Of a DNA stretch of 64,000 nucleotides, positions 2,893-24,508 are shown piece after piece (the first letter of the stretch is position 1; each line of letters opens with the position of its first letter). The notes under the pieces are model-generated. The model did no database searches and had not been told where the DNA came from. It worked only from the letters and a program-made list of their open reading frames with translations. The translations under genes and the position numbers were made by a program. The DNA is from an uncultured delta proteobacterium (lineage in GTDB: Bacteria; Desulfobacterota; Desulfobulbia; Desulfobulbales; Desulfocapsaceae): the NCBI GenBank assembly GCA_963798425.1, contig CAWCTP010000012.1, positions 153,470 to 217,469 of the forward strand, written 5' to 3'.

Positions 2893-3309
2893 ATGCGAAT
2901 ATTTTTCTATACTACCATTGCTTTTTTATTCACTATCCTGGCTGCTGGAATAAGTTCCGCACAGATGAGGGATCACTCTTGTTGTGAGGCTGAACAGACA
3001 ATTGGCGCCATGGATATGGCAAAATGCAACCACACGGAAGGGCCACGAGTCTGGAGTACAAATTCGGGCCGAGACACCCTTGTCGGTGATTGTTGTTGTA
3101 AGTCTGAACCCTGTAGGGATTTGCTCATTCCAAAAGAAGTTGTTCCCGGTTCAACTATCTCTCTTGTTGACTTTTTCGGGATGGTTCAGGAGCAATCCTT
3201 TTTTCAACCGATACCGCTTGTATTATTCGGTGCTAATAGAACCGGGTCTGCGCCACCGCGATTATTCTCCACACCAGCATACCTCCGACATTGCTCCTTT
3301 CTCATTTGA
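2893..3309 (+). CDS. hypothetical small secreted Cys-rich protein
   Basis: The internal ATG of ORF 2815..3309 is preceded by AGGTGAG. The N-terminus is a classic signal peptide (MRIFFYTTIAFLFTILAAGISSAQ). The mature part has CC…C…CCC…C clusters. It sits between copZ and the cus genes, so it is a possible metal-binding periplasmic protein. Confidence 0.3.
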   Translation: MRIFFYTTIAFLFTILAAGISSAQMRDHSCCEAEQTIGAMDMAKCNHTEGPRVWSTNSGRDTLVGDCCCKSEPCRDLLIPKEVVPGSTISLVDFFGMVQEQSFFQPIPLVLFGANRTGSAPPRLFSTPAYLRHCSFLI

Positions 3310-3734
3310 TATACTGCTCCAGGCGTATCTTGGTCTGAAATGGTCCAAATCCAGGACTAATTGACCAAAGTTTTACGGACATGGAGGAGTGTATTGTGGC
3401 GTTTCATTGCCAAATTTCCTCTTCGATACAATCCATTCATTTACCAATGTGTTTTTCTGGTCAGATCTCATGGTCAAATTGGGAGAAATGTTCCATTTGT
3501 TTGATATCATTTTTCCTAATAATTATAAAAAAAAATGAATATAATGTGACAATGACAGGTGTATTCTCGAGTTGTGAGTCAGGACAATTGTCGTCATATT
3601 TTAAGAAAAACTATATGCTTATCAAATGGTAAGACAGTTAGGAGTCTGGTCCCAGACAAAATATTCCAAATAGGGACAGGGTGTTTCGTTCACTCGTTAC
3701 TCTATCAAACAAGAAAACCAGAAAGGAGAATCCA

Positions 3735-7303: not shown

Positions 7304-7315
7304 GGGATAGACAAA

Positions 7316-10300
7316 ATGATTGCATCTATTATACGCTGGTCGGTTGGTAATCGCTTTTTCGTGTTACTGGCTACCATTATGCTGGTAGGCATTGGTCTAT
7401 ATTCGGTGAAGAACACACCTGTTGATGCCTTGCCGGACTTGTCAGACGTGCAGGTGATTATAAAAACATCGTACCCGGGACAGGCGCCTCAGGTGGTTGA
7501 AGACCAGGTGACCTATCCCTTGACGACCGCAATGCTTTCTGTACCGGGAGCGGTAACGGTTCGAGGGTATTCGTTTTTTGGGGATTCGTACGTCTATGTC
7601 ATTTTCAACGATAAAACAGATTTATATTGGGCCAGAAGCAGGGTGCTTGAGTACCTCAGTCAGGTTGCCCCATCACTCCCGGCCGAGGCCAGACCACAGT
7701 TGGGCCCGGATGCCACTGGAGTGGGTTGGGTTTATCTCTATGCCTTAGTGGACAAAACCGGAAAGCATGATATCAGCCAACTCCGATCGCTTCAGGATTG
7801 GTTTTTAAAATACGAACTGCAAACCGTCCCCGGCGTCTCAGAAGTTGCCACCGTGGGTGGTATGGTCAAACAATACCAGGTAATGGTGAACCCGGAAAAG
7901 CTGAGGGCTTTTGGTATCCCGCTGTCCAAAATACAAATGGCAATCAAGGCCGGAAACCAGGAAATCGGGGCATCGGTTGTGGAGATGGCTGAAGCCGAAT
8001 ACATGGTGCGGGCAACCGGCTATCTGCAGAATGCAAAAAATCTGGGCAATATACCGCTTGGGGTCACAGAAAACGGTATCCCACTGCTGTTAAAGGATGT
8101 TGCGGAAATAGGTACTGGCCCACAGATGCGACGGGGCGTCGCAGATTTGAACGGTGAAGGCGAAACCGTGGGTGGTATTATCATCATGCGTTTTGGCGAG
8201 AACGCCCAAACAACTATTGATAGTGTTAAGGCAAAACTTGAGGAACTAAAAGCCGGTCTTCCTGAAGGGGTTGAAATCATTCCGGTCTATGACCGAAGTG
8301 CCTTGATTGAACGTGCAGTCACCAATCTCTGGCACAAGCTGCTGGAAGAATTTGGTGTAGTCGCTTTGGTTTGCGTTGTCTTTCTCTTCCATATCCGTTC
8401 TTCCCTGGTGGCGATTATCAGCTTGCCAGTAGGGATCCTGGCCGCTTTTATTGTCATGCATATGCAGGGTCTCAATGCAAACATCATGTCGCTCGGTGGA
8501 ATCGCAATCGCAATTGGTGCAATGATTGACGGTGCAATAGTCATGATCGAAAACATGCACAAGCATATGGAGAAAACCCCGCTCACCAATGAGAACCGCT
8601 GGCAAATTGTCGCAGAGTCGGCAACTGAAGTAGGCCCTGCTTTGTTTTTCAGCCTGCTGATTATTACAGTCAGTTTTGTTCCTGTTTTTACCCTGGAAGC
8701 CCAGGAGGGACGGATGTTTTCCCCTCTGGCGTTTACCAAGACTTACTCCATGGCCGCCTCAGCCGCACTTTCAATCACGTTAATCCCTGTTTTAATGGGG
8801 TATTTTATTCGGGGCAAGGTGCTGCCGGAGCATAAGAATCCCCTCAACCGTTTGCTGATAGCCATTTACATGCCGCCGCTACGGATGGTCCTGCGCTTTC
8901 CCAAGGTGGTCCTGATCGGGGCTCTGATGGTGCTGGCCATAGGTCTCTGGCCGATCAACAGGATCGGCAGTGAATTTATCCCACCCCTGGATGAAGGAGA
9001 TCTAATGTACATGCCCACAACCTATCCTGGCATATCCATAGGAAAGGCGAGGGAGGTATTACAACAAACCGATAAACTGATCCGCACCGTGCCAGAGGTG
9101 CAGACAGTTTTCGGCAAGGTCGGCAGGGCAGAAACTGCTACAGATCCGGCCCCCCTCACCATGATCGAGACATTTATTCAACTGAAGCCAAAGGATCAGT
9201 GGCGTGCAGGGGTGACCACAGACAGCCTGAAAAAGGAATTGAACAATCTGGTCAAGATACCTGGTTTGACCAATGCCTGGGTGATGCCCATCAAGACGCG
9301 CATCGACATGCTGGCCACGGGAATCAAGACGCCGGTCGGCATCAAGGTAGCCGGCCCCGATTTGAAGGTAATCCAGAAAATTGGTCAGCAAATTGAAACC
9401 GTTATGAAGGATGTTCCTGGTACCGCTTCGGTTTATTCTGAAAGGGTCGCCGGAGGCCGCTATATCAAGGTTGACATTCAACGGGAAAAAGCGGCCAGGT
9501 ACGGCCTGAACATCGCTGATATCCAGCAGGTTGTCGCCTCGGCTATCGGCGGCATGAACGTTACCCAGACAGTCGAAGGCCTGGAGCGCTACCCGGTCAA
9601 TCTGCGTTATCCCCAAGACTATCGTAAGTCGCCGGAGCAACTCTCCCTGTTGCCGATTGTTACCATGGCCGGCCAACGGATTGCCCTGGCGGATGTTGCT
9701 AAAGTTTACATTGAAGACGGACCTCCGGCTATAAAAAGTGAAAATGCTCGTTTGAACGGCTGGACGTTCATCGACATCGAAGGGGTTGATGTAGGCAGCT
9801 ATGTGGAACAGGCTCAAAAGGTGGTTGCCGAAAAAATTCAACTGCCCGCCGGCTATTCCCTCAACTGGTCGGGACAATACGAGTATATGCTGCGGGCCAA
9901 GCAAAAGCTGAAGATGGTGGTGCCGACGACCTTGCTCGTCATCTTCATCCTGCTCTATCTCAATTTCAGGGATGTTACTGAAAGCATCATTGTTATGCTG
10001 TCAGTGCCCTTCGCTCTGACCGGGGGGCTGTGGCTGATCTACTGGCTGGGCTACAACATGAGTGTGGCGGTGGCCGTCGGCTTCATCGCCCTGGCCGGCG
10101 TGGCCGCAGAAACCGGAGTGGTGATGCTCCTCTATCTCGACATCTCCTACCTGAAGTACAAAACGAAGTATGGTCCGGCTTTCTCGAAACGCCACCTGAA
10201 CGAGGCGATCGAAGAGGGGGCAGCGCTCAGGGTCAGGCCGAAGATGATGACGGTAGTCGCCATTATGGCCGGACTTGCCCCGATCATGTGGGGCAGCGGT

Positions 10301-10498
10301 ACCGGCTCCGAGGTTATGAGGCGGATTGCCGCCCCGATGATCGGCGGGATGCTCAGCGCAACGATCTTGACCCTGGTGGTAATCCCGACCATCTATGCCA
10401 TTTGGAAAGGCTGGGGCCTGCCGAAGGAAAGTGAAGGAGCGGCTGGCCGGGCAGGACTCTCCATCGATGTAACCGAAGATCCCAACTCAACCCGATGA
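7316..10498 (+). CDS. cusA: heavy-metal efflux RND permease CusA/CzcA (HME family)
   Basis: 1060-aa, 12-TM RND protein with HME-family conserved blocks ([20 protein letters not shown], large periplasmic loops), directly after cusB. Confidence 0.9.
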
Positions 10499-10546
10499 AA
10501 AGAGAACTGGTAGCCCATATGCGTACGAGCATACTGCCTTGCAGAG

Positions 10547-10567
10547 AGGGCGGGTTAGAACCCGCCC
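10547..10567 (+). terminator. GC-rich hairpin downstream of cusA
   Basis: gggcggg-ttagaa-cccgccc, about 50 nt after the cusA stop. There is no T-tract, so assignment as an intrinsic terminator is tentative. Confidence 0.3.
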
Positions 10568-10616
10568 CCCTGCATACCTGTGCTGAAAGCGATCCTTAGT
10601 TATCCCAGTTCTCCTC

Positions 10617-11350
10617 GTGGCCTTGCTGGTACTTGTTGTCGGAATGTGGCCGATTGATAAAAACGCCCGCTTGAACGGCTGGTCTTTTATTGACATTGAA
10701 GGTGTCGATATTGGCAGCTATGTGGTTGAAGCACAGAAGGTCGTGGCGGAGGGGTCAAACTGCCGGCGGGGTATTCTCTCAACTGGTCGGGACAGTATGA
10801 GTACATGTTGCGGGCAAAAGAGAGACTGACCTATGTGGTTCCTCTGACGCTCACCATCATCATCATTTTACTGTATATGAATTTCCGAAATTTCGTGGAA
10901 GTTTCCATCATTATGGGCACCCTGCCCCTGGCGATGGTCGGCAGTATCTGGTTGATGTATCTTGGGGGATATAATTTCAGCGTTGCGGTGGGTGTCGGCT
11001 TTATAGCCCTTGCCGGAGTTACCGTTGAAATCGGTGTAATCATGCTCGTGTAACTTAATCAGTCCTATTACAAGATGCTCGCCGATACAAAGAATGAAGG
11101 CATTTCACCGGGCACAGAGGAATTATCTCTGGCCGTTCTGCATGGCGCCGGCATGCGTATACGGCCGATTATGATGACCGCTGCGGCAATCATCGCCGGA
11201 TTGCTGCCCATACTATTAGGCACCGGTACCGGTTCTGAGGTAATGAGCAGAATTGCTGCCCCAATGGTGGGTGGGATGGTCAGTTCTGTTGTGCTTACCT
11301 TACTGGTTCTTCCTGCGGTTTTCTTTTTGTGGCGTAAACGTTCGCTTTAG
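10617..11350 (+). pseudogene. decayed duplicate of the cusA 3' end (last ~250 codons)
   Basis: Three ORF fragments (10617..10829, 10805..11053, 11075..11350) align in order with the cusA C-terminus at roughly 65% identity ([20 protein letters not shown]…, MLRAKERL…, GTGTGSEVMSRIAAPMVGGM…). They carry one frameshift and one in-frame stop. No N-terminal 800 codons are present. Confidence 0.75.
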
Positions 11351-11357
11351 TACCTTA

Positions 11358-11391
11358 GAAAATCTTTCTCTGCTTTTTGAGAAAGATTTTC
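11358..11391 (+). terminator. perfect 13-bp stem hairpin after the cusA remnant
   Basis: gaaaatctttctc-tgcttttt-gagaaagattttc, 8 nt after the remnant's stop. Confidence 0.4.
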
Positions 11392-11405
11392 GTGAAGGTA
11401 CTTGT
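11379..11405 (+). repeat. left copy of an imperfect direct repeat (gAGAAAGAtTTTCGTGAAGGtACtTgT); the partner is at 27024..27049
   Basis: 22 of 26 core positions are identical between the two loci, with an extended similarity (ctttttgRg…) of about 35 nt. Each copy is followed by a short GC hairpin (cccgc…gcggg / ccccg…cgggg). Confidence 0.5.
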
Positions 11406-12365
11406 CCCGCGAATCTTTTGGGCGGGATTACCCCTTACTCCAGAATTTCTGTCACTCAGTTTAGTACCCCATTGAGGGGTGTAAAAAACAAAAAAGCTGC
11501 AACGTGTATTGAAATTATAAACTTGAATATACCTTATCCCGGTTTTCTTCCCGTTTGCCGGGGTTAGATATAAGGGGTAACACATAAGCAAAAATAAACC
11601 TGCCTACCTTGCAAACTTGGGTTAAATTGAAAGCATCAACCAACAACCCAGTGCCAAAATCAAGGAGGCAGGTCAAGGGAAAAAACAAATGTCACAAAAA
11701 CAGCTAATGCCTGAGAGATCGCAGGTTTATCCTGGGCAATAGCTCAGGCTCTTCCTAAAGAGCTATGGCTAAGCCATAGCAATAAAATTTTCATTTAACA
11801 ACTTAACCTTATAGGAGTGTTTAAAACCATTAACAGTGTTAACCATCTCAGTGCCTTAGGAATGAATTTTTGTTGGGAAAAGGCCGCAAAAACCCTTCCG
11901 GGCAACCACTACGTAATTCCACCTTCTTGAAAGCTGGCATTTGGCGACTGTGCCTTTTTCTTTAGGGTTCAATGCAGATTGTTCCAAATTGCCTTAAATT
12001 ATTTCTCTTTGTTATCTACCCACCCGACTTGATTCGAGAAAAATAAACATCTGGATTTGCCACGTTTCAAAGTTCCAGCCAACGCCACAAACTCGGTATT
12101 TTTCTTCAACCACTCAATAATTCAGTACTTCAAAGAATTGACAAAGCTTCTTTTGGAATTCCAAGATGCTGAAAACATAAGAAATGTCTTGACATAACGG
12201 TCAGAAAAGGCAATCACTGTCATGACAAAACGAAGCAGCGACATGTCAGAAGGTTAGATATCGTTTTATACATGAATTATGTCGGGGGAGTTGATGGCCG
12301 TGCTCGATTGCAACGTTTTTACTTAGACTTGCTTGCACCTGATATCTTGTCGTTTAAATTTCGGC

Positions 12366-12403
12366 TTTCTGTATAACACACATTTGTGAGTGTTATACAG
12401 AAA
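12366..12403 (+). promoter_or_regulatory. perfect 14-bp inverted repeat with 10-bp spacer (operator-like)
   Basis: tttctgtataacac-acatttgtga-gtgttatacagaaa. It ends 29 bp upstream of the ATG of ORF 12433. Confidence 0.45.
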
Positions 12404-12432
12404 CTGGTGATCCCCTTGTTAAATCTCTAAAA

Positions 12433-13227
12433 ATGAAACTTCATAAATTAACAGAAAGCTATAGGGTTAGACAAGAATCATACCTTTCAGAATTGAAGAA
12501 ATTTCCTTCGACTGAATTGAGAGTTAAAATTGAAATGAATCTATCAGTGTCAAACTTAGTGCTTGAAAATTTATTTAGTTTCTATGCTGCTTTGTCAGAA
12601 AATTTAGATGGGCTTCACAACAAAGGTCAAGAAATTGGGGAAAGGCTAAGATTAGTTATTGCTGAAAATTCTCCACACGAAATCAAGCGCAAAGTTGAAG
12701 AAATAAATCTTTCGAACAAAGCAGAAAAAGAGGAAGAATTACAAAGAATACTTTTACCAGTTAAGCTAGTTGAAAGATTAGGGGAACAAAATGCCTCAAT
12801 AAGTCAAATGCTTGATACTCTATTGAAATACCAAGAAGAATCTGAGAAACTAGTATTCAAAGTGTTTTCATTTAATAGAAAAGCAGAATTGAAAAATGGA
12901 TTGAAACTACTTTTTCGGTTTATTGCTACTCTAAATCCTTTTGTTTCGGGAGCAGATTCGATTTACCAATTAGTCAGGGAAAAGCAAATAAAATATTCAA
13001 CTGCAGATAAATGCATAAGAGAACTGAATGAATACTGGAATAATTGTTTTTCACTTGCTGTTACAGCGAAATATCTAGAAAAGGTTTTGTTAAGTTTTGT
13101 TAGATCACAATCTTCAGTATCAGTTGATGCAAAGAAATGTGTAGATGAAACCTACCAAAAACTTACGAGTCTGCAGACTGAATTTTATGAAGAAGTAATC
13201 AAGAAGATAAAAGAAATGAAAATTTAA
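12433..13227 (+). CDS. hypothetical protein (AT-rich orphan)
   Basis: 264-aa ORF of strongly AT-rich composition, in sharp contrast to the adjacent GC-rich cus genes. It is Lys/Glu-rich and helical, with no recognisable motif. A GC hairpin (gccgcg-aacag-cgcggc) follows it. Confidence 0.55.
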   Translation: MKLHKLTESYRVRQESYLSELKKFPSTELRVKIEMNLSVSNLVLENLFSFYAALSENLDGLHNKGQEIGERLRLVIAENSPHEIKRKVEEINLSNKAEKEEELQRILLPVKLVERLGEQNASISQMLDTLLKYQEESEKLVFKVFSFNRKAELKNGLKLLFRFIATLNPFVSGADSIYQLVREKQIKYSTADKCIRELNEYWNNCFSLAVTAKYLEKVLLSFVRSQSSVSVDAKKCVDETYQKLTSLQTEFYEEVIKKIKEMKI

Positions 13228-13299
13228 CAAATCGTTCCAGCGGAAGCCGCGAACAGCGCGGCTCCCGCTGAACTCCACGTTGAGCCTGTAGAAAAAGGT

Positions 13300-15100
13300 A
13301 TTTGGCCTTGTGAAATCAGAGAGTTATTGGTATATTTAGCTACATCAAATGGTAATCAACCGCTCAACTCTGCAGAAAGTCGGAAGCCATGGCCAAATAC
13401 AAGCCTTACTCCTACGCTCAAGGGCAGTTCATACCGGTATACTTCAACAAGCAGATCCAGAAAGGCACCTTCGAATACACACTCAACTATCTCATCGATC
13501 ATGAGCTTGATCTTGGAATTTTTGATAAGCGATTTCGTAACGATGAGACCGGTGCTCCTGCCTACGACCCCAGAATATTGCTAAAGATCATTCTTTTTGC
13601 CTATTCCCGCGGCATCACCTCAAGCCGTTCAATCGCCAGGTGTAGTGAGGAAAATGTGCTTTTCATGGCACTGTCGGCAAATAGCCGTCCCCACTTCACT
13701 ACCATTGCTGATTTCATATCGAGTATGGACAAAGCAGTGGTCAACCTCTTTCTCCAGATCCTTTTAGTCTGTGACCAGCAGAACCTTATTGGTAAGGAGA
13801 TGTTTGCCATCGATGGCTGCAAGCTGCCGAGTAATGCATCCAAGGAATGGAGTGGCACCAAGGAAGACCTGAAGCGTAAAGCGGAAAAGATGGAGAAGGC
13901 CCTGCACCGGATGATAATCCGTCACAAATGCATGGACGAGTCCAAGATTGAGCCGGAGGTGCAGGAAAGAGAAAAGAAGTACCAGGAAAAACTGAAGAAA
14001 AGTGCTGCCAAGATCAGGCAATGGCTTGGCGATAACGATGATCGTACAGGCAGCGGCGGCAAGGCGGTGAAATCGAATATCACCGACAACGAATCTGCGA
14101 AAATGGCGACGTCCAAAGGTGTGATCCAGGGATATGTTGGAGTTGCCTCGGTGGATAAGAAACACCAGGTGATTGTTGGCGCGGAAGCATATGGCCAGGG
14201 CCATGAAACCGATCTTCTGGTGCCTGCAGTGGAGACGATACAATCCAATCTTGCGAAAATCGGCGAATCGGATGCGTTGGATAATGCACAAATTGTGGCC
14301 GACAGTGGCTATCATTCCGAAAAGAATATGGAATATCTCTTTACGGAGAACATAGACGGCTATGTGGCGGACAAGCACTTTAGAAAAAGGGATCCCCGGT
14401 TTATCACCCAGGATAGATATAAAGATTTGCCAAGCTATTATGGCAGCACCAGGAATGGTAAGAAACGATTGTTCAGGCCGTCTGATTTTATCTTTGCCGA
14501 TGACTTGAGTCACGCCATCTGCCCGGCAGGTAAAAGGCTTTACCGTAGCGGCTCCCGTGCCAAGGTGAAAAACTATCTTGCCTACAAGTTCAAAGGAGCG
14601 AAACGGGATTGTCTTCCCTGCGAACTGCGTCGGGAGTGTCTCCGTCATCCAGAAAAAACCGAGATCCGCCAGCTTGCCTATTTAACAGGACGAAACCGCG
14701 CCGGCAAAGAACGATTCACTGAGAAGATGAAGCGCAAGATCGATACTGCTGTTGGCTGTGCGCTGTATGGCATGCGACTGGCTATTGGTGAGCCGCCCTT
14801 CGCGCATATACGCTCGGCAATAGGCCTGGATCGATTCAGCCTACGCGGCAAAAGGAAGGTTAACACGCAGTGGAATCTGTTCTGCATGGTCCATAACTTG
14901 AAGAAAGTGCATGCCTTTGGAACGATAGAGGTGTAAAAGCAGAGAGAAAAGTAGAAGAAGGCCGGAAATAAGCTGAAATGAAGCTCAGGAGAGCGCCAAT
15001 GACATAAGAAAAGGCAATTTATTGAATATTCGGTAAGTTTCAAGGTAACGCCTCAAATTTTGAAATTGAGAGGTAGTGGGAAACTCCGACTTTCAAAAAC
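13300..15100 (+). mobile_element. IS element (boundaries approximate)
   Basis: A single transposase gene flanked by short non-coding stretches. The terminal inverted repeats could not be defined by eye. Confidence 0.4.
13389..14936 (+). CDS. IS1182-family (IS5-like DDE) transposase
   Basis: 515 aa. The N-terminal DUF772-like block PAYDPRILLKIILFAYSRGITSSRSIARCSEENVLFMAL and the C-terminal DDE region match the IS1182/IS5 superfamily. A 294-aa antisense ORF overlaps it and is disregarded. Confidence 0.8.
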   Translation: MAKYKPYSYAQGQFIPVYFNKQIQKGTFEYTLNYLIDHELDLGIFDKRFRNDETGAPAYDPRILLKIILFAYSRGITSSRSIARCSEENVLFMALSANSRPHFTTIADFISSMDKAVVNLFLQILLVCDQQNLIGKEMFAIDGCKLPSNASKEWSGTKEDLKRKAEKMEKALHRMIIRHKCMDESKIEPEVQEREKKYQEKLKKSAAKIRQWLGDNDDRTGSGGKAVKSNITDNESAKMATSKGVIQGYVGVASVDKKHQVIVGAEAYGQGHETDLLVPAVETIQSNLAKIGESDALDNAQIVADSGYHSEKNMEYLFTENIDGYVADKHFRKRDPRFITQDRYKDLPSYYGSTRNGKKRLFRPSDFIFADDLSHAICPAGKRLYRSGSRAKVKNYLAYKFKGAKRDCLPCELRRECLRHPEKTEIRQLAYLTGRNRAGKERFTEKMKRKIDTAVGCALYGMRLAIGEPPFAHIRSAIGLDRFSLRGKRKVNTQWNLFCMVHNLKKVHAFGTIEV

Positions 15101-15152
15101 GGCTTTTTCTATAGACTCGTTATTAGGCATAAGAATCCGGGGGTGGCCGTAG

Positions 15153-16880
15153 ATGGCAAAGAAGAAAAAACTAAGCAATCCATTCTCCACCGGCGGTGGC
15201 GGCGTCCATTTTGAAGCGCATGTCCAAGCGTCCTTTGTCGCGCTGATGCTTACCGGCGGGCACGCTCCCTGTCTTCCCTGCTGGCCTATTGCGGAAATCA
15301 AACTTCAGGGCAAGATTGACGGCTTTGATACAGACGACCTTGTTGTTGTTGTAGAAAACGTGAACAGCAAGGAGCGGCGCAAACTTCTCGGGCAGGTCAA
15401 GCACACCATTGCCATCACGCAGGGCAGCACCCTATTTGGGGAGGTGATGCAGGCCGCCTGGAATGATTTCAAAAATCCTAAGGTGTTCACACGAGATAAG
15501 GATATTATTGCCCTGATCACAGGACCGCTCAGCGCAACCGATGCACACAACGTGCAATGGTTGCTAAACCAGGCGAGGCACACCAAAAACGTTGATGAGT
15601 TTTTCAGAAACGTCCATCAAGCGAATTTCAGCCCACCCAAGAGTGCCGAGAAACTGGAGGTCATTCAGCACCACCTAAAAGCAGCAAACGGTGGCAACGA
15701 CGTTTCAAGGGATGAACTCTATGACTTCCTTAACCACTTCCATCTGCTTGGTTACGATCTTGGTAACGAGTTCGGCGTTGTCCTGTCTCTGCTGCATTCC
15801 CACATTTCCCAATTCCAGCAGCATCAGCAGCAATGGGTCTGGTCACGGGTTGTCGATATTGTACAAACATGGAATCAAGATGCTGGTACGATCACGCCCG
15901 GCAAGTTGCCGGACGACCTTCTGGAAGCATTTAAGCAAAAGGCCGTGGCGGAAATGCCCGAGGAATTGAAGGCGGCACAGGAGAAACCTAAAACTGATTG
16001 GACTCAGCACCCTGACGCCACCTATCTGGCCTTGGCAGTTTTGATTGGCGCTTGGCAAGACAAAAGTCAATGCGACCTTGAGGCGATAACCCAACTGCTC
16101 GACATAAGTTATGACGAGTGGCTAAAGAAGGCGCGGGAAATATTACACTACCCTGACAGCCCGTTGGCTCTCAAAAACGGTATCTGGAAAGTTGTTAATC
16201 GAGCCGAGCTTTGGGGCCTGCTAGGATCGCGCATCCTTGATCAAAACCTTGATACTTTTAGGCCGCTTGCTGTTACCGTACTGAAGGAGCCAGACCCCGC
16301 TTTTGAACTGCCCGCCGAAGAGCGATACGCGGCAAGCATTCATGGCAAGGTGCTGAAATGTTCACATGTGTTGCGAAAAGGCATTGCCGAGGGTTTGGCC
16401 ATTCTGGGCAGCCAGCCAGAGTCGTGCCTTAACTGCTCGCAAGGGAAAGCTGAAGCAGCCTGCGCATTGGTAATACGTGAACTTCTGACCGATGCTGACT
16501 GGGTTTTGTGGGGCAGCCTGAACGGTTTGCTGCCCACTCTGGCCGAAGCCGCCCCGGGTGAATTTCTTGATGGTGTCGAAAAGACGATGCAGCTGACGCC
16601 CTGTCCTTTTGATGAGCTTTTCTCCCAGGAAGGCAACGGCATCACCGGCGGCAATTATTTAACCGGTCTACTCTGGGCGTTGGAAGGGCTGGCATGGGAT
16701 GAACAATATCTGGTTCGAGTCTGTGTTGCGCTTGGTGAACTTGCCAGTCATGACCCTGGCGGCCGGTGGGCCAATCGTCCATCCAATTCGCTTGCTACCA
16801 TTTTGCTGCCCTGGCTGCCACAGACGCTGGCATCTGTTGACAAACGCAAGGTGGCGGTGCGAACGATCCTTAATGAATGA
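15153..16880 (+). CDS. large hypothetical protein, N-terminal part (possible PD-(D/E)xK-like nuclease core)
   Basis: 575-aa ORF with no P-loop. It contains FDTDDLVVVVEN…GQVKH, a pattern compatible with a D-x(n)-E/QxK nuclease motif. It ends at TGA 16878-16880, but the same frame stays open into ORF 17046..18692. Confidence 0.55.
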   Translation: MAKKKKLSNPFSTGGGGVHFEAHVQASFVALMLTGGHAPCLPCWPIAEIKLQGKIDGFDTDDLVVVVENVNSKERRKLLGQVKHTIAITQGSTLFGEVMQAAWNDFKNPKVFTRDKDIIALITGPLSATDAHNVQWLLNQARHTKNVDEFFRNVHQANFSPPKSAEKLEVIQHHLKAANGGNDVSRDELYDFLNHFHLLGYDLGNEFGVVLSLLHSHISQFQQHQQQWVWSRVVDIVQTWNQDAGTITPGKLPDDLLEAFKQKAVAEMPEELKAAQEKPKTDWTQHPDATYLALAVLIGAWQDKSQCDLEAITQLLDISYDEWLKKAREILHYPDSPLALKNGIWKVVNRAELWGLLGSRILDQNLDTFRPLAVTVLKEPDPAFELPAEERYAASIHGKVLKCSHVLRKGIAEGLAILGSQPESCLNCSQGKAEAACALVIRELLTDADWVLWGSLNGLLPTLAEAAPGEFLDGVEKTMQLTPCPFDELFSQEGNGITGGNYLTGLLWALEGLAWDEQYLVRVCVALGELASHDPGGRWANRPSNSLATILLPWLPQTLASVDKRKVAVRTILNE

Positions 16881-18692
16881 CCGGATATCGCCTGGAATCT
16901 GATCATTCAGCTTCTTCCCGGTCAGCACCGGACCTCTTCTGGATCGCACAAACCAAGCTGGCGTAAGACCATCCCCGATGATTGGGAAAAAGGGATTACG
17001 CATCAGGAATACTGGCAGCAGGCATCTTTTTACGCGGAACTTGCGGTGGCTGCCGCAGGCCAAGATACTGTCCGGCTTTCCGCATTGATTGATCATTTTG
17101 ATAACCTACCTGAACCCGCTTTTAATCAACTTCTCCAGGTTCTTGCCTCCCAATCCATTTCAGAACTCTCCGAAGAACAACGACTTTCGATTTGGGACCA
17201 TCTCACGAAATTCACAAACAAACATCGGCGGTTCTCCGATGCGAAATGGTCATTGCCCGACGAACTGATTACCCGCATTGAACAAGTTGCCGAGCAACTC
17301 GCCCCCACCAGCCCGTTAAATTTATATCAGCACCTTTTTACAAATCGTGACTTTGATCTCTACGAAGAGAATGGCAATTGGGAAGAGCAGCGCAAGAAAC
17401 TCGAGACGCGACGTGAAACGGCCATTTTGGAAATCTTTCAGCAAGATGGCACTGAGGGTGTCATACGATTTGCCGAATCCGTTTCTTCACCAGGTCAGGT
17501 CGGGCATGCGCTTGGCATTATTGCCGATCCAGTCATTGAGCGAACCCTTTTGCCTCACTTCCTAGGTTCAGAAGACAACAGGCGCAGGGAATTGGTGAGC
17601 GGTTTTATCTGGCGGCGTTACTACCTAAAAGGCTGGGGGTGGTGCGACGACATCAATAAATCTGATTGGACTCCAGAGCAAGTAGCACAATTTCTGGCTT
17701 GTTTGCCGTTTACCAAGGAAACATGGGATCGCGCTTCTGAATGGCTCCAGGCCCACGAGAATGAATATTGGACCCGCACAGGCGCTAATGCCTATCAGGC
17801 CAATGGTGATCTTGCCATTGCCATTGAGAAACTGATTGAACATGGCAGACCACACGCGGCAATCAACTGCCTAGACAGGATGCGCCATGACAAGCAGCCA
17901 ATCGATAGTAATCAATGTGTTCGAGCGTTGCTCGCAGCACTTTCCTCCAGTGAGCCCAGCTACGCCATGGACGGGTACCACATCGTCGAACTGATCACGT
18001 TTCTTCAGGCAGAGCCTTCGGTTAGCCAAGACGACCTCTTTAGAGTCGAGTGGGCATATGTTCCCTTGCTCGACCGTCATAGAGGTGCCGCGCCCCAACT
18101 CCTTGAAAGCAGACTGGCCAATGACCCCGAGTTCTTTTGCGAGGTAATTCGACTGATCTACCGTTCCCAGAAAGAAGATCAGCCGTCGAGAGAACCCACC
18201 GAGGAATCAAAGGCAATCGCAACAAATGCCTGGCAATTGCTACATGAGTGGAAAACACCGCCTGGAACACAAAAAGATGGAACGTTCAGCGAAGAGCGCT
18301 TTACTGAATGGCTCCAAAGGGTAAAGGAAGTCTGTACGGAATCCGGCCACCTGGAAGTTGCACTCATCAATATTGGCGAAGTATTGATTCACACCCCACC
18401 CGATCCAGGCGACTTATGGATACGCCGCGCTGTCGCTGCCGCATTGAATGACCGCGAAGCTGATGACATGCGCGCCGGTTTCAGGACGGGGACATACAAC
18501 TCACGCGGTGTTCATTGGGTTGACCCAACCGGAAATCCGGAGAGAGAACTGGCTGAGCAGTTCCGGAGCAAAGCCGAGGAAATAGAGAACGCTGGGTTTC
18601 AGCGATTTGCAGTTACCTTGAGAGGTTTGGCGGACAGCTACGACCGCGAAGCTGAACGGATAATTAACGATAACAAAGACCGGGAAGATTAG
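16881..18692 (+). CDS. large hypothetical alpha-helical protein, C-terminal part (in-frame continuation of 15153..16880)
   Basis: The frame is continuous from 16881 with protein-like, Trp-rich translation (PDIAWNLIIQLLPGQH…). The first ATG is at 17046. The combined reading frame is about 1180 aa. Confidence 0.5.
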   Translation, partial: PDIAWNLIIQLLPGQHRTSSGSHKPSWRKTIPDDWEKGITHQEYWQQASFYAELAVAAAGQDTVRLSALIDHFDNLPEPAFNQLLQVLASQSISELSEEQRLSIWDHLTKFTNKHRRFSDAKWSLPDELITRIEQVAEQLAPTSPLNLYQHLFTNRDFDLYEENGNWEEQRKKLETRRETAILEIFQQDGTEGVIRFAESVSSPGQVGHALGIIADPVIERTLLPHFLGSEDNRRRELVSGFIWRRYYLKGWGWCDDINKSDWTPEQVAQFLACLPFTKETWDRASEWLQAHENEYWTRTGANAYQANGDLAIAIEKLIEHGRPHAAINCLDRMRHDKQPIDSNQCVRALLAALSSSEPSYAMDGYHIVELITFLQAEPSVSQDDLFRVEWAYVPLLDRHRGAAPQLLESRLANDPEFFCEVIRLIYRSQKEDQPSREPTEESKAIATNAWQLLHEWKTPPGTQKDGTFSEERFTEWLQRVKEVCTESGHLEVALINIGEVLIHTPPDPGDLWIRRAVAAALNDREADDMRAGFRTGTYNSRGVHWVDPTGNPERELAEQFRSKAEEIENAGFQRFAVTLRGLADSYDREAERIINDNKDRED

Positions 18693-18803
18693 TAATCTCA
18701 ATGCCTAACAACCGTATCAACTCAGACTGTCAATTCCGCTGCTCTCCATTACCAGCCGGTTATGCGGAGCGTTGGCCGTAGAAAGAATACTGGAGATATC
18801 GAA

Positions 18804-19223
18804 ATGAATGTTAAACCACATGATAGATTCAGCGCGGAATATTCTCTAACGCCGAAGAAGGTTGCCGATTATGCACTTTCAGTAGGTGATAAAAATCCAA
18901 TCCACCATGATCCTAATTTTGCGGCCAAAACACGATATGGCCGTCTAATAGCAAGTGGAACTCATACGACAGCTTTGATTCTTGGATTAACTGCATCTCA
19001 CTTTTCAAAAAAGACTTCGATGGTTGGACTTGATTATTGGGTCGGCTTTCAGCGTCCGATCTATGCAAATGAGACTATCAAATTGGAATGGCTAGTGGTC
19101 CGAGTGACTCCAAATAAAAAATTGAAAGGTAGTATCGTTGAACTCCGCGGACGAATTTTAGGACAGGATGGTAAAACGTCACTTGGTGCCAAAGGACGTT
19201 TGTTAATCACTGACAAATTATAA
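18804..19223 (+). CDS. MaoC-like (R)-hydratase hotdog-fold protein
   Basis: GGAGAT RBS before MNVKPHD. Contains the motif DKNPIHHDPNFAAKTRYGRLIASGTHT, typical of MaoC dehydratase. Confidence 0.75.
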   Translation: MNVKPHDRFSAEYSLTPKKVADYALSVGDKNPIHHDPNFAAKTRYGRLIASGTHTTALILGLTASHFSKKTSMVGLDYWVGFQRPIYANETIKLEWLVVRVTPNKKLKGSIVELRGRILGQDGKTSLGAKGRLLITDKL

Positions 19224-19447
19224 TGAATCAGAATTTTGCCAACCAGTCGTTTTGAGAATCGACGCGCAAAAAGCGCGTGTCTCAACTCCATGGTGGGGTG
19301 CCGATTATGAACTGGCAATTGAGAAGACGGGAAGTTAATTTATAACTGATAGAGGAAATAGATATCCATGCGTTTCAACTCAACCCCACGCAAAAAGACC
19401 GCCGACACACCACATCCTCAGAAGCTTGCTTTGAGGCACATGTCATT

Positions 19448-19740
19448 GGGGTCGGACCACGTTAAGTGTATGAATTAATTGTGTAATACCGGAAAGAAGT
19501 GGTAGTTTGCATTCTTGCAATGCCCTTTTGGGTGGAGAATAGGTAGCTTTAAGGAAAGTGTTTGTGGAAAATAGGGGACGTAGGAAATAGGGGACGTCCT
19601 TAAAAAATAAAATTAGTTGTCCTTTACTTTAGGGCTTGCCGGAGTAAACAGGAAATCATTCCAAGAATAGCCAGACTTGATAGCCCCCCGTGCCCCCCCC
19701 TTTTTGATCTCCCCATGGTTGTTGTTAAGGTCCGACCCCA
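19448..19740 (+). repeat. 12-bp inverted repeats (tggggtcggacc / ggtccgacccca) flanking a 270-bp segment with tandem 17-nt repeats and a C8 tract
   Basis: Arms lie at 19447-19458 and 19729-19740. Inside are ggaaaataggggacgta-ggaaataggggacgtcc (19566-19599), a C6 tract (19684-19689) and a C8 tract (19693-19700). Confidence 0.35.
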
Positions 19741-19825
19741 TTTGGATTTGGCTTCCATTCTCATTTGGCTTTGCGATCAATTTTTACGAAGGACAACACT
19801 GCTATACTACTTATCGGTTGCAATT

Positions 19826-19986
19826 TTTTCCTGTTTACAGGGAAAATAGATGAAATTCAGATCGGTTTGCTGTTCTTGAGGATTGTTTAGTTGTTTTTAC
19901 TCGTTTACAGGGAAAAAATGTTGACTATTGAATCTTGATTGCTATCATTTGAACATAACAGTTTATTTTCCCGTTAAACAGGGAGG
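19826..19986 (+). promoter_or_regulatory. hipB promoter region with three operator-like repeats spaced 70 bp apart
   Basis: TTTTCC-tgtttacag-GGAAAA is a perfect palindrome at 19826-19846. Related copies lie at 19896-19916 and 19966-19986; the last overlaps the RBS. A sigma70-like TTGACT-16-TATCAT lies at 19921-19948, and a GGGAGGAGG RBS sits before ATG 19991. Confidence 0.45.
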
Positions 19987-19990
19987 AGGC

Positions 19991-20242
19991 ATGGAGAGAC
20001 AGCTAGCACACATTATTAGATTTCACAGAAAACGCAGTGGATTGACTCAGCTTGAGCTCGCTGAAATGGCTGGTGTCGGGAAAAATCTGATTTATGAAGT
20101 CGAAAATGGCAAACTAAGTTTGCGCCTGGATAACTTACTGAAGGTTCTCCAGGTTCTAAATATCGATCTCAACTTTCAAAGTCCCCTTCGTGAGAGTTTT
20201 TTGAAGGAGTATCCTAATGCGGATAGCGGATGTGTTTTTTAA
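19991..20242 (+). CDS. hipB: HipB-like XRE-family HTH antitoxin/repressor
   Basis: MERQLAHIIRFHRKRSGLTQLELAEMAGVGKNLIYEVENG is a Cro/C1-type HTH. It is the first gene of a three-gene operon with overlapping starts and stops. Confidence 0.8.
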   Translation: MERQLAHIIRFHRKRSGLTQLELAEMAGVGKNLIYEVENGKLSLRLDNLLKVLQVLNIDLNFQSPLRESFLKEYPNADSGCVF

Positions 20243-20546
20243 AAATATTACGGCCGGACAGCTTACCCAGATGGATGAAGACGGGAAGTATTGTTTTCGT
20301 TATGCTCTGAACTACGCTGGCCCCCCGATTTCGGCGACAATGCCGGTACGGAGTGAGGCCTATCTATTTGATAGTTTCCCTCCTTTTTTTGACGGCTTAC
20401 TGCCGGAGGGATTTCAACTCGAAGCTCTTTTGCGCCAAAGAAAACTCGATCGGAACGACAGATTCGGGCAGCTACTTCAGGTTGGAGCTGATACCGTCGG
20501 TGCGGTAACAGTGAGTGAACATCTATTGGAAGAAAGGTGCAAATGA
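20217..20546 (+). CDS. hipS: HipS-like protein (HipA N-terminal subdomain as a separate polypeptide)
   Basis: 109 aa resembling HipA N-terminal subdomain 1. AAGGAG RBS upstream. Overlaps hipB by 26 bp and hipT by 10 bp. Confidence 0.75.
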   Translation: MRIADVFFKNITAGQLTQMDEDGKYCFRYALNYAGPPISATMPVRSEAYLFDSFPPFFDGLLPEGFQLEALLRQRKLDRNDRFGQLLQVGADTVGAVTVSEHLLEERCK

Positions 20547-21469
20547 ATCGATGTCCTCTCACCTATCAGCCCTGTGTCGGCGCATACTCCGAACAAGGTT
20601 TGAAACTTCTCTCCCGGCGCCTGATAGGACTAAAAGATTTACCGTTCACCGCCGAGGAGTTACGCCGGGAGGCAGCTGCTCGCTCTGAGAAAATGTCCAT
20701 CCAAGGTGTCCAGCCCAAATTGTCGGCAAAACTGAACATTAAAGAACAACAATTTGATTTTGTTGACAGGAGCGGTCTTTATATTCTCAAACCTCAAACT
20801 GCAGACTATCTGGAGGTGCCGGAGAATGAAGATCTCAGCATGCGATTTGCACGTGTAGCGGGCATTGAGGTGCCCCTGCATGGTCTGCTTTATGGACGGG
20901 ATCGACAGTTGAGTTATTTCATTCGCCGTTTTGACAGAGTCGGCCGTAACGACAAGGTTCATGTTGAGGATTTTGCTCAACTTGCCGGACTCTCACGTGA
21001 TACAAAATATCGATCCAGCATGGAACAAGTGGCAGGTTTGATAGACAGATACTGTACCTTTCCGGCTGTCGAGAGACTCAAATTATTTCGTCTGATTTTG
21101 TTCTGTTTTCTGATTGGCAATGAAGATATGCATCTGAAAAATTTTTCTATTATATACAGAGATGACGTTATAGGGCTGTCTCCGGCCTATGACCTCTTGA
21201 ATACAACCATCGCCTTGCCTCATCCAGAGGAAGAACTCGCCCTGCCGTTAAATGGTAAAAAGAACAAGCTGAAACGACAGGATTTGGTTGATTATTTCGG
21301 ACGGAATCGATTGCAGTTGACAAACCGGGTGATTGATAAGGTAATGCTGGAATTGAAGCAGGCACGTACGACTTGGGAACAATTACTAGCTGTTAGTTTC
21401 CTGTCAGAGCAAATGAAAGAGAAATATCTCAGTGTGCTGGAAGATCGATTTTTAAGACTGTATGGATAG
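20537..21469 (+). CDS. hipT: HipT-like Ser/Thr kinase toxin (HipA C-terminal kinase core lacking N-subdomain)
   Basis: Contains GVQPK and the catalytic GNEDMHLKNFS motifs of HipA-family kinases. The length (310 aa) and gene order match the HipBST tripartite type. Confidence 0.8.
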   Translation: MQMNRCPLTYQPCVGAYSEQGLKLLSRRLIGLKDLPFTAEELRREAAARSEKMSIQGVQPKLSAKLNIKEQQFDFVDRSGLYILKPQTADYLEVPENEDLSMRFARVAGIEVPLHGLLYGRDRQLSYFIRRFDRVGRNDKVHVEDFAQLAGLSRDTKYRSSMEQVAGLIDRYCTFPAVERLKLFRLILFCFLIGNEDMHLKNFSIIYRDDVIGLSPAYDLLNTTIALPHPEEELALPLNGKKNKLKRQDLVDYFGRNRLQLTNRVIDKVMLELKQARTTWEQLLAVSFLSEQMKEKYLSVLEDRFLRLYG

Positions 21470-21568
21470 GCGCACTACGATCAACCAAGACGAAGTTGAT
21501 TTTTAACCATTTATTATTTATCGCGGCAATTGGTGCCTGCCGTGTCAAGAATAAAGATTTGCTCCCTC

Positions 21569-22390
21569 TTATTTACTTCCCAGTAGATACACCTCCGTAA
21601 ATGTCGGATCAATATTATGATAAGACTCCAGCAAGACTAGAAATTTGCCACGTACTCGCGGGTATTTGTTCATGATTTTTTTGAACTTCTGCGGGTAGGT
21701 GAAGATCATGGCAGCGTATTCGTTGATATCGTTTTCGACGCTGGTTTGCGCGTATGTATCCATAAAGCCTTTTTCAAAATCGACCTCTGTCCCACCTAAA
21801 TGCGAGACGCTCTTGTATGTCTTTAGTGGATCCTTGGTTGTGTTGTATAAGTAGTCAAATTCCTTTGGATTATTTGCAGTCCAGAGATTGGTGTCAAATG
21901 AATTACGTTGCAACAAAAGGGAACTGAACTCATGATGAAAAGCGTATATACCATCATCATGAGCTTGGAATCCACTATCAATCAAATATATGCTCCTTTT
22001 CAAAGGATCATATAATGCTCCATAGTTAAACCCATTTTTTTTAGTGATTCTCCCAGCAAAATTAATAGTAGATAAATGGTTTTTGATTACTTGAACCGGA
22101 TACCTCTCTAATGCCGTTTGCAAGATATCAGCATAGCGAACTAGCACCCTAGGCCAAATCGGTTTGATGATGGGCGATTCTTCCCAAGCTGATAAAAAAT
22201 CCGCGTCAACCTTGTAGACAATCTTGATCCCATATTTGGATGTAATTGGTTCAAAACAAGCGTCAATTTCCTCTTTGGTATAGGTCGTATGAAGATAGAT
22301 GAAATACAATTTACCGCCGACAGCGAGCACCAGCAGAATTGCTAATAAATAGTTTACTACCTTGTTCATCGGTCTATATTTGATCATATC
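21569..22390 (-). CDS. hypothetical membrane-anchored protein (AT-rich)
   Basis: About 274-aa ORF with an N-terminal TM (VVNYLLAILLVLAVGG) and a soluble domain. Overlaps the end of the upstream LysM gene. The start codon is uncertain. Confidence 0.5.
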   Translation of the reverse strand, partial: DMIKYRPMNKVVNYLLAILLVLAVGGKLYFIYLHTTYTKEEIDACFEPITSKYGIKIVYKVDADFLSAWEESPIIKPIWPRVLVRYADILQTALERYPVQVIKNHLSTINFAGRITKKNGFNYGALYDPLKRSIYLIDSGFQAHDDGIYAFHHEFSSLLLQRNSFDTNLWTANNPKEFDYLYNTTKDPLKTYKSVSHLGGTEVDFEKGFMDTYAQTSVENDINEYAAMIFTYPQKFKKIMNKYPRVRGKFLVLLESYHNIDPTFTEVYLLGSK

Positions 22391-23360
22391 ACGCATCTGG
22401 ATATTCATGACGTTTTGGGTCAACGGAGTGTTTGAAAGACATAATTGAGGTCATTTCTCCTGGTCTAAATGTTGCTATGCGAATTGCTGGGAAAAAACGT
22501 GCGATAACCGTGATCGCTACCAAAGCGAAAATCGCAGTTAGATAGTCGTCCGTTTTGGTCACATCTACCGAGGTGGTTGGATCTAAAGCTCTAACATCCA
22601 CCGCCGCATTATCCCGAACCGGTGCTTTATTCACTCCCTTGGATCTTGGATGCATGATCACCTCAACTTTGAGCTCGATATCGGCGCTGAATTTGTATTT
22701 TACTCCCCTAACTTCCAAGGTGCCGTTGAGAGTTTGAGGCTTAATGAAGCCCGCCCAATGGATAGGGCTATCCTTCTGAACTTTTACCGTAAAGGGGCCA
22801 AGATTGGCCTCGGTCGCTAGAGGTGCCTTGATTTTGACTATGCCGGACTCGAACACCATCTCAGGTTTGGCCGTCAGGGCAGACAGGGCCGGGTCGTATG
22901 TCTTGTATAATTTTTGCTTGGCCTGTATGGGGTCTTTGCTTATGAGCAGTTCAAAGCCGTGTTGGCGCATGTTGTCGGACATGGTTTCGATGCTGATCTT
23001 GCCGCTTAACTCGGTTTTGACCGTGAAGTCAAGATAAGGACGGACGTATTTGATTTGTGGCGTGTCATGGCCGATTGAGTAGGTAACTTTCAGATCGAGT
23101 GGAATTGCTGATTTTCCACCTTCAACTTTGACGCCGGTTCCTGGTTGCAGATTTATTTTGCGTGCCGGCAGTACAATCGTCTGTCCCACATAAATCAGAT
23201 TTTCATTTACAATGGGAATCAGTGGGCGTTGCTGATGTTGCTTTGCGGCCTCTTTATTGTGTTCGTTGAAAATATCTGGCCATCTGGTGCCGCTACCCAA
23301 ATATTGGTAGGCCAAGCTCCATAGACTGTCTCCCTTTTTAACCAAATGATACAAAGGCAT
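22389..23360 (-). CDS. LysM domain protein
   Basis: The N-terminal LysM motif YHLVKKGDSLWSLAYQYLGSGTRWPDIFNEHN…GQTIVLP is followed by a beta-rich domain. The gene is AT-rich. Confidence 0.65.
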   Translation of the reverse strand: MPLYHLVKKGDSLWSLAYQYLGSGTRWPDIFNEHNKEAAKQHQQRPLIPIVNENLIYVGQTIVLPARKINLQPGTGVKVEGGKSAIPLDLKVTYSIGHDTPQIKYVRPYLDFTVKTELSGKISIETMSDNMRQHGFELLISKDPIQAKQKLYKTYDPALSALTAKPEMVFESGIVKIKAPLATEANLGPFTVKVQKDSPIHWAGFIKPQTLNGTLEVRGVKYKFSADIELKVEVIMHPRSKGVNKAPVRDNAAVDVRALDPTTSVDVTKTDDYLTAIFALVAITVIARFFPAIRIATFRPGEMTSIMSFKHSVDPKRHEYPDA

Positions 23361-24508
23361 TTTGCCTCCTTTTTAAGTTGTAACCCAACGGTGATTTAAT
23401 GTTTGGCTTTTTTATCTTTGACACTTTGCCAGCGTTATGACGACGTTCCTGCGTATCTAGATGGAATCTTGTTGCCAGGAGATCCTTTAGTCAAATGGGT
23501 CGCAGACTACTTATCCGTGTTGGATTTCACAACTTTTCCCTCCGTATAAAATTTTCTATTTCAACCCTGCCTTGGTAAGGGTTGACTGTAATCTTATATG
23601 CAAAATGTCCCAAGAAGCCAATTTTGCATAAGGTCATATACCTCCTGAATTTGAATTGTCCTCGCAGCAGAAGACTGTTTGGAAAAACTATCTTCAAGCC
23701 ATGAACACCAATAATGGGTCAAGCAAAGAGTAAACGTTCACCAGCAACCCATATGCTTGCGATGAACCCCCCTTGCATAGGAACGTTGTGTTTTTTCTCT
23801 ATCTGCTTTCTGATGCTCGACTCTTCTTCCAGATCCCTTTTTCCAAGGAGGGCCTTTATCTCTTCAACAAACCCGACACATCCTCTTGTATTCATGGAGT
23901 TGTGATAGCTTTGATATCTTATATTTTTCTTACATTTTTAAGGTTGATAGAGAAAAACGAGCTTGCTGGGGACGTCACATATCACGCTTTTGGATATTCT
24001 TGGAGTTTGGGGTCAATGAAATGCTCGAAAGACATAACCGAGGCTGTCGTTCTTGGTTGAAGTTGTATTTTACTCCACCGACCTCCACGGTGCCATTGAG
24101 AGTGGCAGACTTAATGGTGCCGGACATATGGTTGGGGCTCTCTTCACCTAATTGCCTTCTTTTAGGTCTTGATGAGGCCTCCCGCTTTGCTGAAGTTAGG
24201 GTGGTGATTGATGAGAAAATGGTTTCTTATCACAATCTTTCTCGGTCGCCAATCTTCCCAGTCCGAAACACCTGTGATATTAAATTCCCTTATGATTTCA
24301 TGAAGATTTGTAAACTCTGACAATTGCCACTTCATTTTCGAGATCGGGAGTTCTGAACCTGAAGTTCGGTTTGCACCGCATTGAGTTTCCGGGCACCTGT
24401 GTCTTTCGACAAGTATTTGGTGGCTGTTTATAATTGGAATGATTATCATAAATAGGGTAATGTAACATTGAAGTAAATACTTAAACACTCTACGGAATTC
24501 ACTCTGTT

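Follow-up and report, generated by a model that had tools for sequence, protein, structure and literature searches.

A premature TGA in a cassette-borne gene of a Desulfocapsaceae bacterium, and the putative anti-phage nuclease-solenoid family to which the gene belongs

A large reading frame with a single internal TGA

The sequence analysed (the window) was a stretch of 64,000 nucleotides from an uncultured delta proteobacterium of the family Desulfocapsaceae (GenBank assembly GCA_963798425.1, contig CAWCTP010000012.1, positions 153,470 to 217,469 of the forward strand), and the subject of this work is a large interrupted gene that it contains. Two open reading frames (ORFs), at 15153..16880 (575 amino acids, ATG start) and 17046..18692, lie in the same frame. 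Translation of the whole segment 15153-18692 (+ strand) gave 1179 codons with one internal stop, the TGA at 16878..16880 (codon 576, in a UGA-C context), reading ...RTILNE*PDIAWNLIIQLLPGQHRTSSGSHKPSW..., and the untranslated remainder of the gene (16881..18692, + strand; 603 codons and a TAG) is still open. The frame uses TGG 37 times and TGA once. No Shine-Dalgarno-like sequence was present 5' of the first in-frame restart codons, GTG 17046 and TTG 17085. Neither the 575-residue product nor the CusA product of the window had an identical protein entry, and the E. coli genomes gave no match.

Both halves of the frame had hundreds of homologs at E = 0, so the downstream part is not a chance continuation of the upstream one, and close homologs read RTILNEWPDIAWNL across the position of the stop. 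A scan of one genome per species gave 340 relatives, the best 80 of which were examined as reference loci: 75 of these gave one tblastn hit without a break. At the position of the TGA, the aligned codon was TGG in 42 of the 80, TGA in none, and one of assorted other sense codons in the rest, corresponding to 13 different residues (W, C, S, V, Q, F and others; Cys in 7). In an exhaustive HMMER search with the downstream 603 residues as query, dozens of intact representatives of 1165-1195 amino acids aligned to this half at their residues ~575-1175. The ORF pair is therefore almost certainly one gene of 1179 codons with a change from Trp (TGG) to TGA by a G-to-A transition, which has probably made it a pseudogene. 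The preliminary description of this DNA, made from the letters of the sequence, had already treated the pair as one large gene with a single stop, and had named a nonsense mutation, an assembly error and a recoding event as possible causes. The first part is borne out by the relatives, which are single ORFs of ~1180 amino acids with a sense codon at the site; the opposite arrangement, two separate genes of which the first ends at a conserved stop and the second has a start of its own, was not seen among the homologs.

The gene as an integron cassette

The segment 15120-18771 of the window is, with near certainty, a single-gene integron cassette of 3.65 kb, which is long relative to typical integron cassettes. 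Blastn homology to the copies in other phyla (86-91% nucleotide identity) started at 15120-15123 and ended at 18772-18777; these copies came from Pseudomonadota, Desulfobacterota (Desulfogranum), Chlorobiota (Chlorobium), Chloroflexota (Anaerolinea), Planctomycetota, Cyanobacteria (Synechococcus) and others. The 5' boundary and leader of the cassette (15119..15152, + strand) reads GTTATTAGGCATAAGAATCCGGGGGTGGCCGTAG, an altered form of the GTTAGGCAT... core of other genomes. This core (or GTTAGGT/GTTAGAC) was shared about 30 nt before the ATG, with unrelated sequence further 5', at loci L004, L005, L008, L010, L013 and L014, and likewise at L016, L018, L021, L022, L065 and L072. On the other side, 3' of the stop codon, the copies bearing a recombination site (attC) showed GCCTAAC, an imperfect palindrome and G|TT, after which the sequences diverged. 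An inverse core of the RYYYAAC type and a core of the GTTRRRY type, with homology breaking at the known crossover point, identify these limits as integron cassette boundaries. In the window the attC occupies 18703..18777 (+ strand), with the R'' box GCCTAAC at 18703-18709, the R' box G|TTGGCC at 18771-18777 and the crossover after 18771; R' (GTTGGCC) deviates from RRR at one base.

A consensus hairpin derived from four attC variants found behind the family gene had 24 pairs, 13 of them with compensatory double changes, and the bottom strand folded at -21 to -22 kcal/mol in L004 and L054. The covariance model built from these family sites (a narrow model) scored the window attC at 83.1 bits (E = 1.6e-17) and placed an attC directly 3' of the gene in 16 of the 80 reference loci and in the metagenome contig L001; it found none beside the remaining copies, including those embedded in operons. 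Arrays of same-strand attC sites were seen in L072 (7 sites, one abutting the start of the gene), L054 (4) and L018 (2). The close clade of the family, with 72-91% amino acid identity and members in many phyla, is thus an integron cassette that has spread across phyla, which is the new observation of this work. Integron cassettes are known to carry defence systems (bioRxiv 10.1101/2024.07.02.601719), and the size of a cassette matters for its recombination (10.64898/2026.03.17.712381). The family was not among the named cassette-borne systems in the cassette-defence literature examined. Its cassettes resemble the defence cassettes described from BRiCs and sedentary chromosomal integrons in having a single ORF, a leader of about 30 nt, a 3' attC with R'' and R' boxes, and G|TTRRRY boundaries; a defence-type gene of 3.65 kb moving in this form broadens what was recently found about integrons, namely that they stockpile defence genes.

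The copy in the window no longer has a well-formed site. Its attC stem carries two non-compensatory changes (TGGCAAT/ATTGCCA to TGTCAAT/ATTACCA) and folds at -9.2 kcal/mol, no different from shuffled sequences (z = +0.3). On the 5' side, an insertion sequence (IS) of 1837 bp (13282..15118, + strand) lies at the GTT core between this cassette and a second one. It has 16-nt terminal inverted repeats (13282-13297 and 15103-15118) and a transposase ORF at 13389-14936 (515 amino acids; DUF772, DDE_Tnp_1_6 and DDE_Tnp_1), and no near match to it was found in the plasmid collection. It is flanked by ...CCACGTT on its left and by GTTATTAGGC, the 5' core of the window cassette, on its right; GTT is probably the 3-bp target duplication of the IS, and the element may have landed in an attC core. 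The upstream cassette consists of an AT-rich orphan ORF of 264 amino acids (12433..13227, + strand), with no Pfam or PADLOC match, and an attC-type site of 60 nt directly 3' of it (13222..13281, + strand; ATTTAAC, an imperfect palindrome and GTT). The stop codon of the ORF overlaps the R'' box of this site, the bottom strand of which folded at -19.6 kcal/mol with bulged bases (z = -6.3 with respect to shuffles); the narrow covariance model did not detect the site at 13222-13281.

With a nonsense codon in the gene, the stem pairing of the attC lost and an IS in the core, decay has reached the gene, the recombination site and the surroundings alike. The locus is a decayed cluster of two cassettes with an IS in its recombination core, and is integrase-less as far as the 64 kb examined extend. 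Small cassette clusters lacking an integrase (CALIN/SALIN) and cassette insertion outside integrons have been described (bioRxiv 10.1101/2022.09.11.507474), and the window is in the same integrase-less, small-cluster state, with the family present in same-strand attC arrays elsewhere. Insertion of an IS has been inferred to immobilise a cassette (10.64898/2026.03.17.712381), and the cassette of the window is inactivated and probably immobile. The window can be read as a snapshot of the death of a cassette outside an active integron, through nonsense mutation, decay of the attC stem and an IS in the recombination core.

A gene for a MaoC-like dehydratase (18772-19223), the start of which is probably ATG 18804, begins right after the G|TT crossover of the cassette, and no attC was found 3' of it. 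Judged from the sequence, this gene may belong to the chromosome that flanks the insertion site, as G|TT fits the GWT 'attG' consensus.

Origin of the in-frame TGA

The copy of the window was compared with 20 close intact homologs by counting its private changes at columns invariant among them. One such change was found at 253 columns upstream of the stop and nine at 219 columns downstream (Fisher p = 0.007), including G1087D within the near-invariant motif DPxGLWI. The closest intact copies were balanced (0/1, 1/1, 2/2 and 3/1). The ratio of nonsynonymous to synonymous substitution rates (dN/dS) with respect to intact relatives was 0.10-0.16 upstream of the TGA and 0.16-0.23 downstream. Counting against a real mutation, the downstream excess of private changes is modest and some more distant intact copies are also faster in the C-terminal half, so that this signal is suggestive, not decisive. 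A real nonsense mutation is nevertheless strongly favoured. A sequencing or assembly error, under which the organism would carry an intact TGG gene, is an unlikely explanation: the TGA is one base off the codon of all the closest relatives, the remaining 603 codons are open with a dN/dS well under 1, and the L001 copy, with its frameshift of the homopolymer-length kind, indicates that such artefacts or mutations do happen in this gene, but the site itself is not a homopolymer (AATGAATGACCGG) and the invariant-column substitutions, G1087D among them, are concentrated 3' of the stop. This excess, together with an attC that independently lost its stem pairing, makes an error less likely, and the altered 5' core and the abutting IS fit a locus that is truly decaying.

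A functional stop codon was given still less weight. In a leaky nonsense allele, low read-through of the UGA by tRNA-Trp would yield a little full-length protein from a potentially toxic gene, besides a truncated product of 575 amino acids. UGA-C is reportedly the least efficient termination signal in Escherichia coli, near-cognate decoding of UGA inserts Trp, Trp is the ancestral residue at the site, and the 575 N-terminal codons are nearly free of private change; against these points, the absence of TGA from the aligned position in all 80 relatives argues that there is no conserved regulatory device, no stimulatory structure was found 3' of the stop, and the downstream part is under relaxed constraint. 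Such an allele is improbable, and trace read-through restoring Trp is conceivable as something incidental rather than programmed. Programmed recoding, as selenocysteine or through a genome-wide code with UGA as Trp or Gly, was rejected on stop-codon usage, the variability of the site and the lack of a convincing selenocysteine insertion sequence (SECIS) after the TGA, and can be regarded as extremely improbable. Cys does occur at the aligned position in a few of the relatives and a modest hairpin can form downstream. However, TGA ends 8 of the 38 long ORFs of the window, one of them a gene of the AcrB/CusA type that fits its Pfam model over the full length; the frame otherwise encodes Trp with TGG; and the aligned position is highly variable and outside any redox motif. 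The weak 5-bp hairpin at 16909-16922, pointed out in the preliminary description as the one SECIS candidate, was not part of the minimum-free-energy fold, and the fold after the UGA was unexceptional (z = -1.9, equalled by 7 of 200 shuffles). An Rfam scan of window positions 10000-25000 gave no family at the gathering level and nothing meaningful. Among the three causes proposed at the outset, nonsense mutation is thus the best supported, error is less likely and recoding did not hold.

Domain architecture of the protein

The structure was modelled as two separate halves, the first comprising the 575 residues before the stop. The AlphaFold model of this part had a mean pLDDT of 89.6, and its N-terminal head (15153..16115, + strand; amino acids 1-~321) contained a Cap4/LmuA-type PD-(D/E)xK fold with its core at amino acids 17-123. 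This core is alpha-beta-beta-beta-alpha-beta (H17-33, E45-51, E63-68, E75-83, H93-107 and E118-123, pLDDT >90). Foldseek against the PDB gave the Lamassu nuclease LmuA as the top match of the head (9hr5_C, E = 2.5e-5), then Cap4 of CBASS (6wan_F, E = 4.7e-4, probability 1.00), with Avs3 (8dgc) also among the matches. Residues E21, D61/D62, Q81 and K83 were invariant or at least 90% conserved in 82 sequences, and K77 was conserved too; in the model, E21 belongs to helix 1, D61/D62 precede strand 2, and strand 3 ends with Q81-x-K83. The head is called Cap4-like by fold only, since a link at the sequence level is absent. At the level of the predicted fold, it is confirmed to be of the PD-(D/E)xK nuclease kind, Cap4/LmuA type, which agrees with the guess made for the N-terminus from the sequence motifs.

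The rest of the protein is a putative sensor or scaffold, an alpha-solenoid module of ~860 amino acids (16116..18689, + strand; amino acids ~322-1179) that begins at DWTQHPDATYLALAVLIGAW, where the alignment with differently headed relatives sets in, and is interrupted by the TGA. It was all-helical in the models (pLDDT 88-90), with generic HEAT, ARM and karyopherin structures as its only structural matches and no sequence match in Pfam, NCBIfam, PADLOC or the PDB. Neither a Walker A nor an hhhhD[DE] motif was found in the full protein, which had no Pfam NTPase match and gave helical-repeat models; the original characterization of this part as helical and devoid of NTPase motifs therefore stands.

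Size, spread and alternative heads of the family

The exhaustive search gave 4763 family representatives at 50% clustering (E <= 0.001), and the family occurs in bacteria and archaea. Full-length nuclease-headed copies with 58-64% identity were found in archaea that are methanogenic or methanotrophic, namely Methanocalculus, Methanoperedens and Methanosarcinaceae (L042, L056 and L063), which indicates transfer of the family between domains. No name for the family was found in Pfam, NCBIfam release 20, PADLOC 2.0 or the literature searched, with the current DefenseFinder models outside the scope of the comparison. It is a very large and taxonomically broad family without a Pfam, NCBIfam or PADLOC model or a solved relative, in which an architecture and contexts of the immune sensor-effector kind recur. 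Interest attaches to the family and to its spread on cassettes rather than to the copy of the window, an ordinary pseudogene.

Several other heads precede the solenoid in place of the nuclease. By Pfam these were TIR (P0192, TIR_2, 1.4e-13; P0226, precomputed Pfam TIR families), Schlafen/AlbA_2 (P0201 and P0252), SIR2 (P0244), DUF4062 (P0282), SMEK (P0368), a GT4-conflict glycosyltransferase (P0255, 4.7e-80), a calcineurin-like phosphoesterase (Metallophos, P0333) and, weakly, a HEPN-like DUF4145 (P0155, E = 0.031). A helix-turn-helix (HTH) regulator head was seen, by annotation only, in distant plasmid relatives, and head-less forms of 863-879 amino acids were found as well. PADLOC models matched the alternative heads as pAgo-SIR2 (1e-101, P0244), Thoeris ThsB (6e-22) and Aga_REase (2.5e-39, the SMEK head of P0368); all these matches stop at the head, and none covers the solenoid.

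Disrupted copies occur elsewhere in the family: an IS630-type element was found in the copy of Methylomonas and an ISL3-type element in that of Chamaesiphon, a frameshift in a C-run in L001, internal stops in L021 and L070, and a frameshift in L031. The proposal that all members are broken was rejected, as the exhaustive search and the genome scan showed intact genes of ~1180 amino acids to be the norm; the apparent pervasive pseudogenisation came from a database limit and the choice of short entries. A word-indexed protein search returned no member longer than 1056 amino acids, though the exhaustive library contained an abundance of intact members of 1165-1418 amino acids. The word index seems to under-represent long proteins, which can make a family look fragmented.

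Three individual copies showed further particularities. The ISL3-split homolog of Chamaesiphon minutus (L003; CP003600, 1186841-1209075) lies amid Tn7-like genes (TnsA-like, TniB and TniQ fragments) and adjoins a pPIWI_RE system, another defence-island context. Paenibacillus sp. DMB5 (L073) carries two paralogs about 7 kb apart (660-3314 and 10001-13528), one full and nuclease-headed, the other with the solenoid only (query residues 283-1169). P0158, a nuclease-headed metagenome protein of 1047 amino acids, has an in-frame deletion of ~130 residues where the solenoid begins (...EILAEADWVTWGSLN...) and is otherwise open to the C-terminus.

Putative role in defence

No partner gene was conserved across the 80 loci. 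At some of them the gene sits between HsdM/HsdS and HsdR in type I restriction-modification (R-M) operons, and at others between PglX and BrxL in BREX operons. Genes for RhuM and a Schlafen-ATPase were found alongside some copies of the family, and on a conjugative Shewanella baltica plasmid the family gene comes after an Abi gene and a superinfection-exclusion gene. Because different heads are swapped on a constant module and copies are embedded in R-M and BREX operons, the family appears reasonably likely, from its architecture and context, to be a single-polypeptide anti-phage sensor-effector. The alternative, that the solenoid serves a housekeeping or mobile-element function as its scaffold or regulatory module, with a nuclease head used in recombination or repair, is favoured by the HTH-headed plasmid relatives, the head-less forms, the lack of conserved partner genes and the lack of a match to any validated defence model. 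It seems unlikely: the alternative heads are the typical set of prokaryotic immune effectors, with very strong matches of the pAgo, Thoeris and Lamassu types, copies of the gene have entered type I R-M and BREX operons repeatedly, its distribution is patchy and driven by horizontal gene transfer, with frequent inactivation by IS, frameshift or nonsense mutation, and it is carried on integron cassettes. The defence-island assignment made at the outset keeps its defence part, through the swapping of effectors and the R-M and BREX contexts; the notion of a generic island gives way to a decayed two-cassette integron remnant with an IS.

Put together, the gene of the window is likely to be a dead copy (TGG to TGA), carried on a cassette, of a nuclease-headed anti-phage family. 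Several observations weigh against this combined reading. Neither half of the protein was recognised by any PADLOC, Pfam or NCBIfam model. The head in particular had no match to Pfam Cap4_nuclease/DUF4297 or to PADLOC LmuA/Cap4 at E <= 1, and none to PDB profiles; Gln occupies the third acidic position of its putative (D/E)xK motif, although the conserved residues lie in the model where this motif would be expected. The HTH-headed plasmid relatives and the head-less forms indicate that the module is not tied to a killing effector. As for the cassette, the covariance search and a pattern-plus-folding scan gave two attC sites only in the window, and no integrase was seen among the ORFs scanned near the island, no systematic integrase search having been made in the window or the loci.

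In the mechanism proposed, the solenoid would hold the nuclease head inactive until it binds a phage-derived ligand, most likely a protein; the ligand-bound solenoid would then drive oligomerisation, through which the nuclease heads would pair and become able to cleave DNA, destroying that of the infected cell or of the phage. The oligomerisation step is proposed by analogy with LmuA, the Cap4 head of which has no activity as a monomer and gains it on tetramerisation (PMC12663957), and is put forward with less confidence than the anti-phage role itself.

LmuA and Cap4, the best structural matches of the head, share its alpha-beta-beta-beta-alpha-beta core, with acidic residues and a Lys, and likewise carry the head N-terminal to a regulatory domain; the alternative heads of LmuA (Cap4, Sir2, SMEK and others; PMC12663957) overlap those found here. 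In contrast to both, the window protein has no sequence-level similarity to them and no conserved partner genes, and its regulatory part is the ~860-amino-acid solenoid, not the C-terminal domain of LmuA that docks the SMC-like LmuB and LmuC, nor a SAVED nucleotide sensor. DSR2 and DSR1, in which a SIR2 head is joined to a large helical C-terminal part that senses phage proteins, are likewise single polypeptides of ~1000-1200 amino acids with an N-terminal effector, long helical repeats and no NTPase, and P0244 is SIR2-headed as they are, but the window protein has neither the SIR2 head nor the homologous C-terminal sensor region. The Avs/bNACHT (STAND) proteins also have N-terminal effectors that can be swapped, Cap4-type nucleases among them, and a sensor built of repeats at the C-terminus, and oligomerisation activates them, as is proposed for the present family; their central P-loop NTPase module is not present in the window protein. 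Short pAgo effectors (SIR2-, TIR- and REase/SMEK-APAZ) draw on the same pool of heads (P0244 and P0368), whereas the family has no APAZ/PIWI region and no Argonaute partner nearby, and the matches are confined to the head. We tentatively raise the possibility that the ~860-amino-acid solenoid is the hallmark of a large and as yet unnamed family of immune receptors, each a single polypeptide free of NTPase, with at least nine heads, and that cassettes spread the nuclease-headed clade. If so, these solenoid receptors would be a new phage-sensing module. The family would be cheap to test, since only one gene is involved and cultured strains have intact copies of it; close intact homologs are present in Desulfogranum japonicum DSM 18378 (L005) and Thiorhodococcus drewsii AZ1 (L006), and enterobacterial copies in Kosakonia arachidis (L023) and Enterobacter chuandaensis (L052).

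Other features of the window

The region comprising the cassettes, the IS and a HipA gene is flanked by a copper efflux operon of the CusB/CusA type (5720-10498) and a copper-type P-type ATPase (24509-26782), which points to mobile material inserted in a metal-resistance region. At 19928-21469 an HTH gene (with PADLOC HTH_VI and capH-like matches), a small ORF and a HipA_C kinase follow in succession, an order consistent with the HipBST-type module mentioned in the preliminary description; the HipA_C protein also showed a weak match to the PADLOC candidate PDC-M03A.

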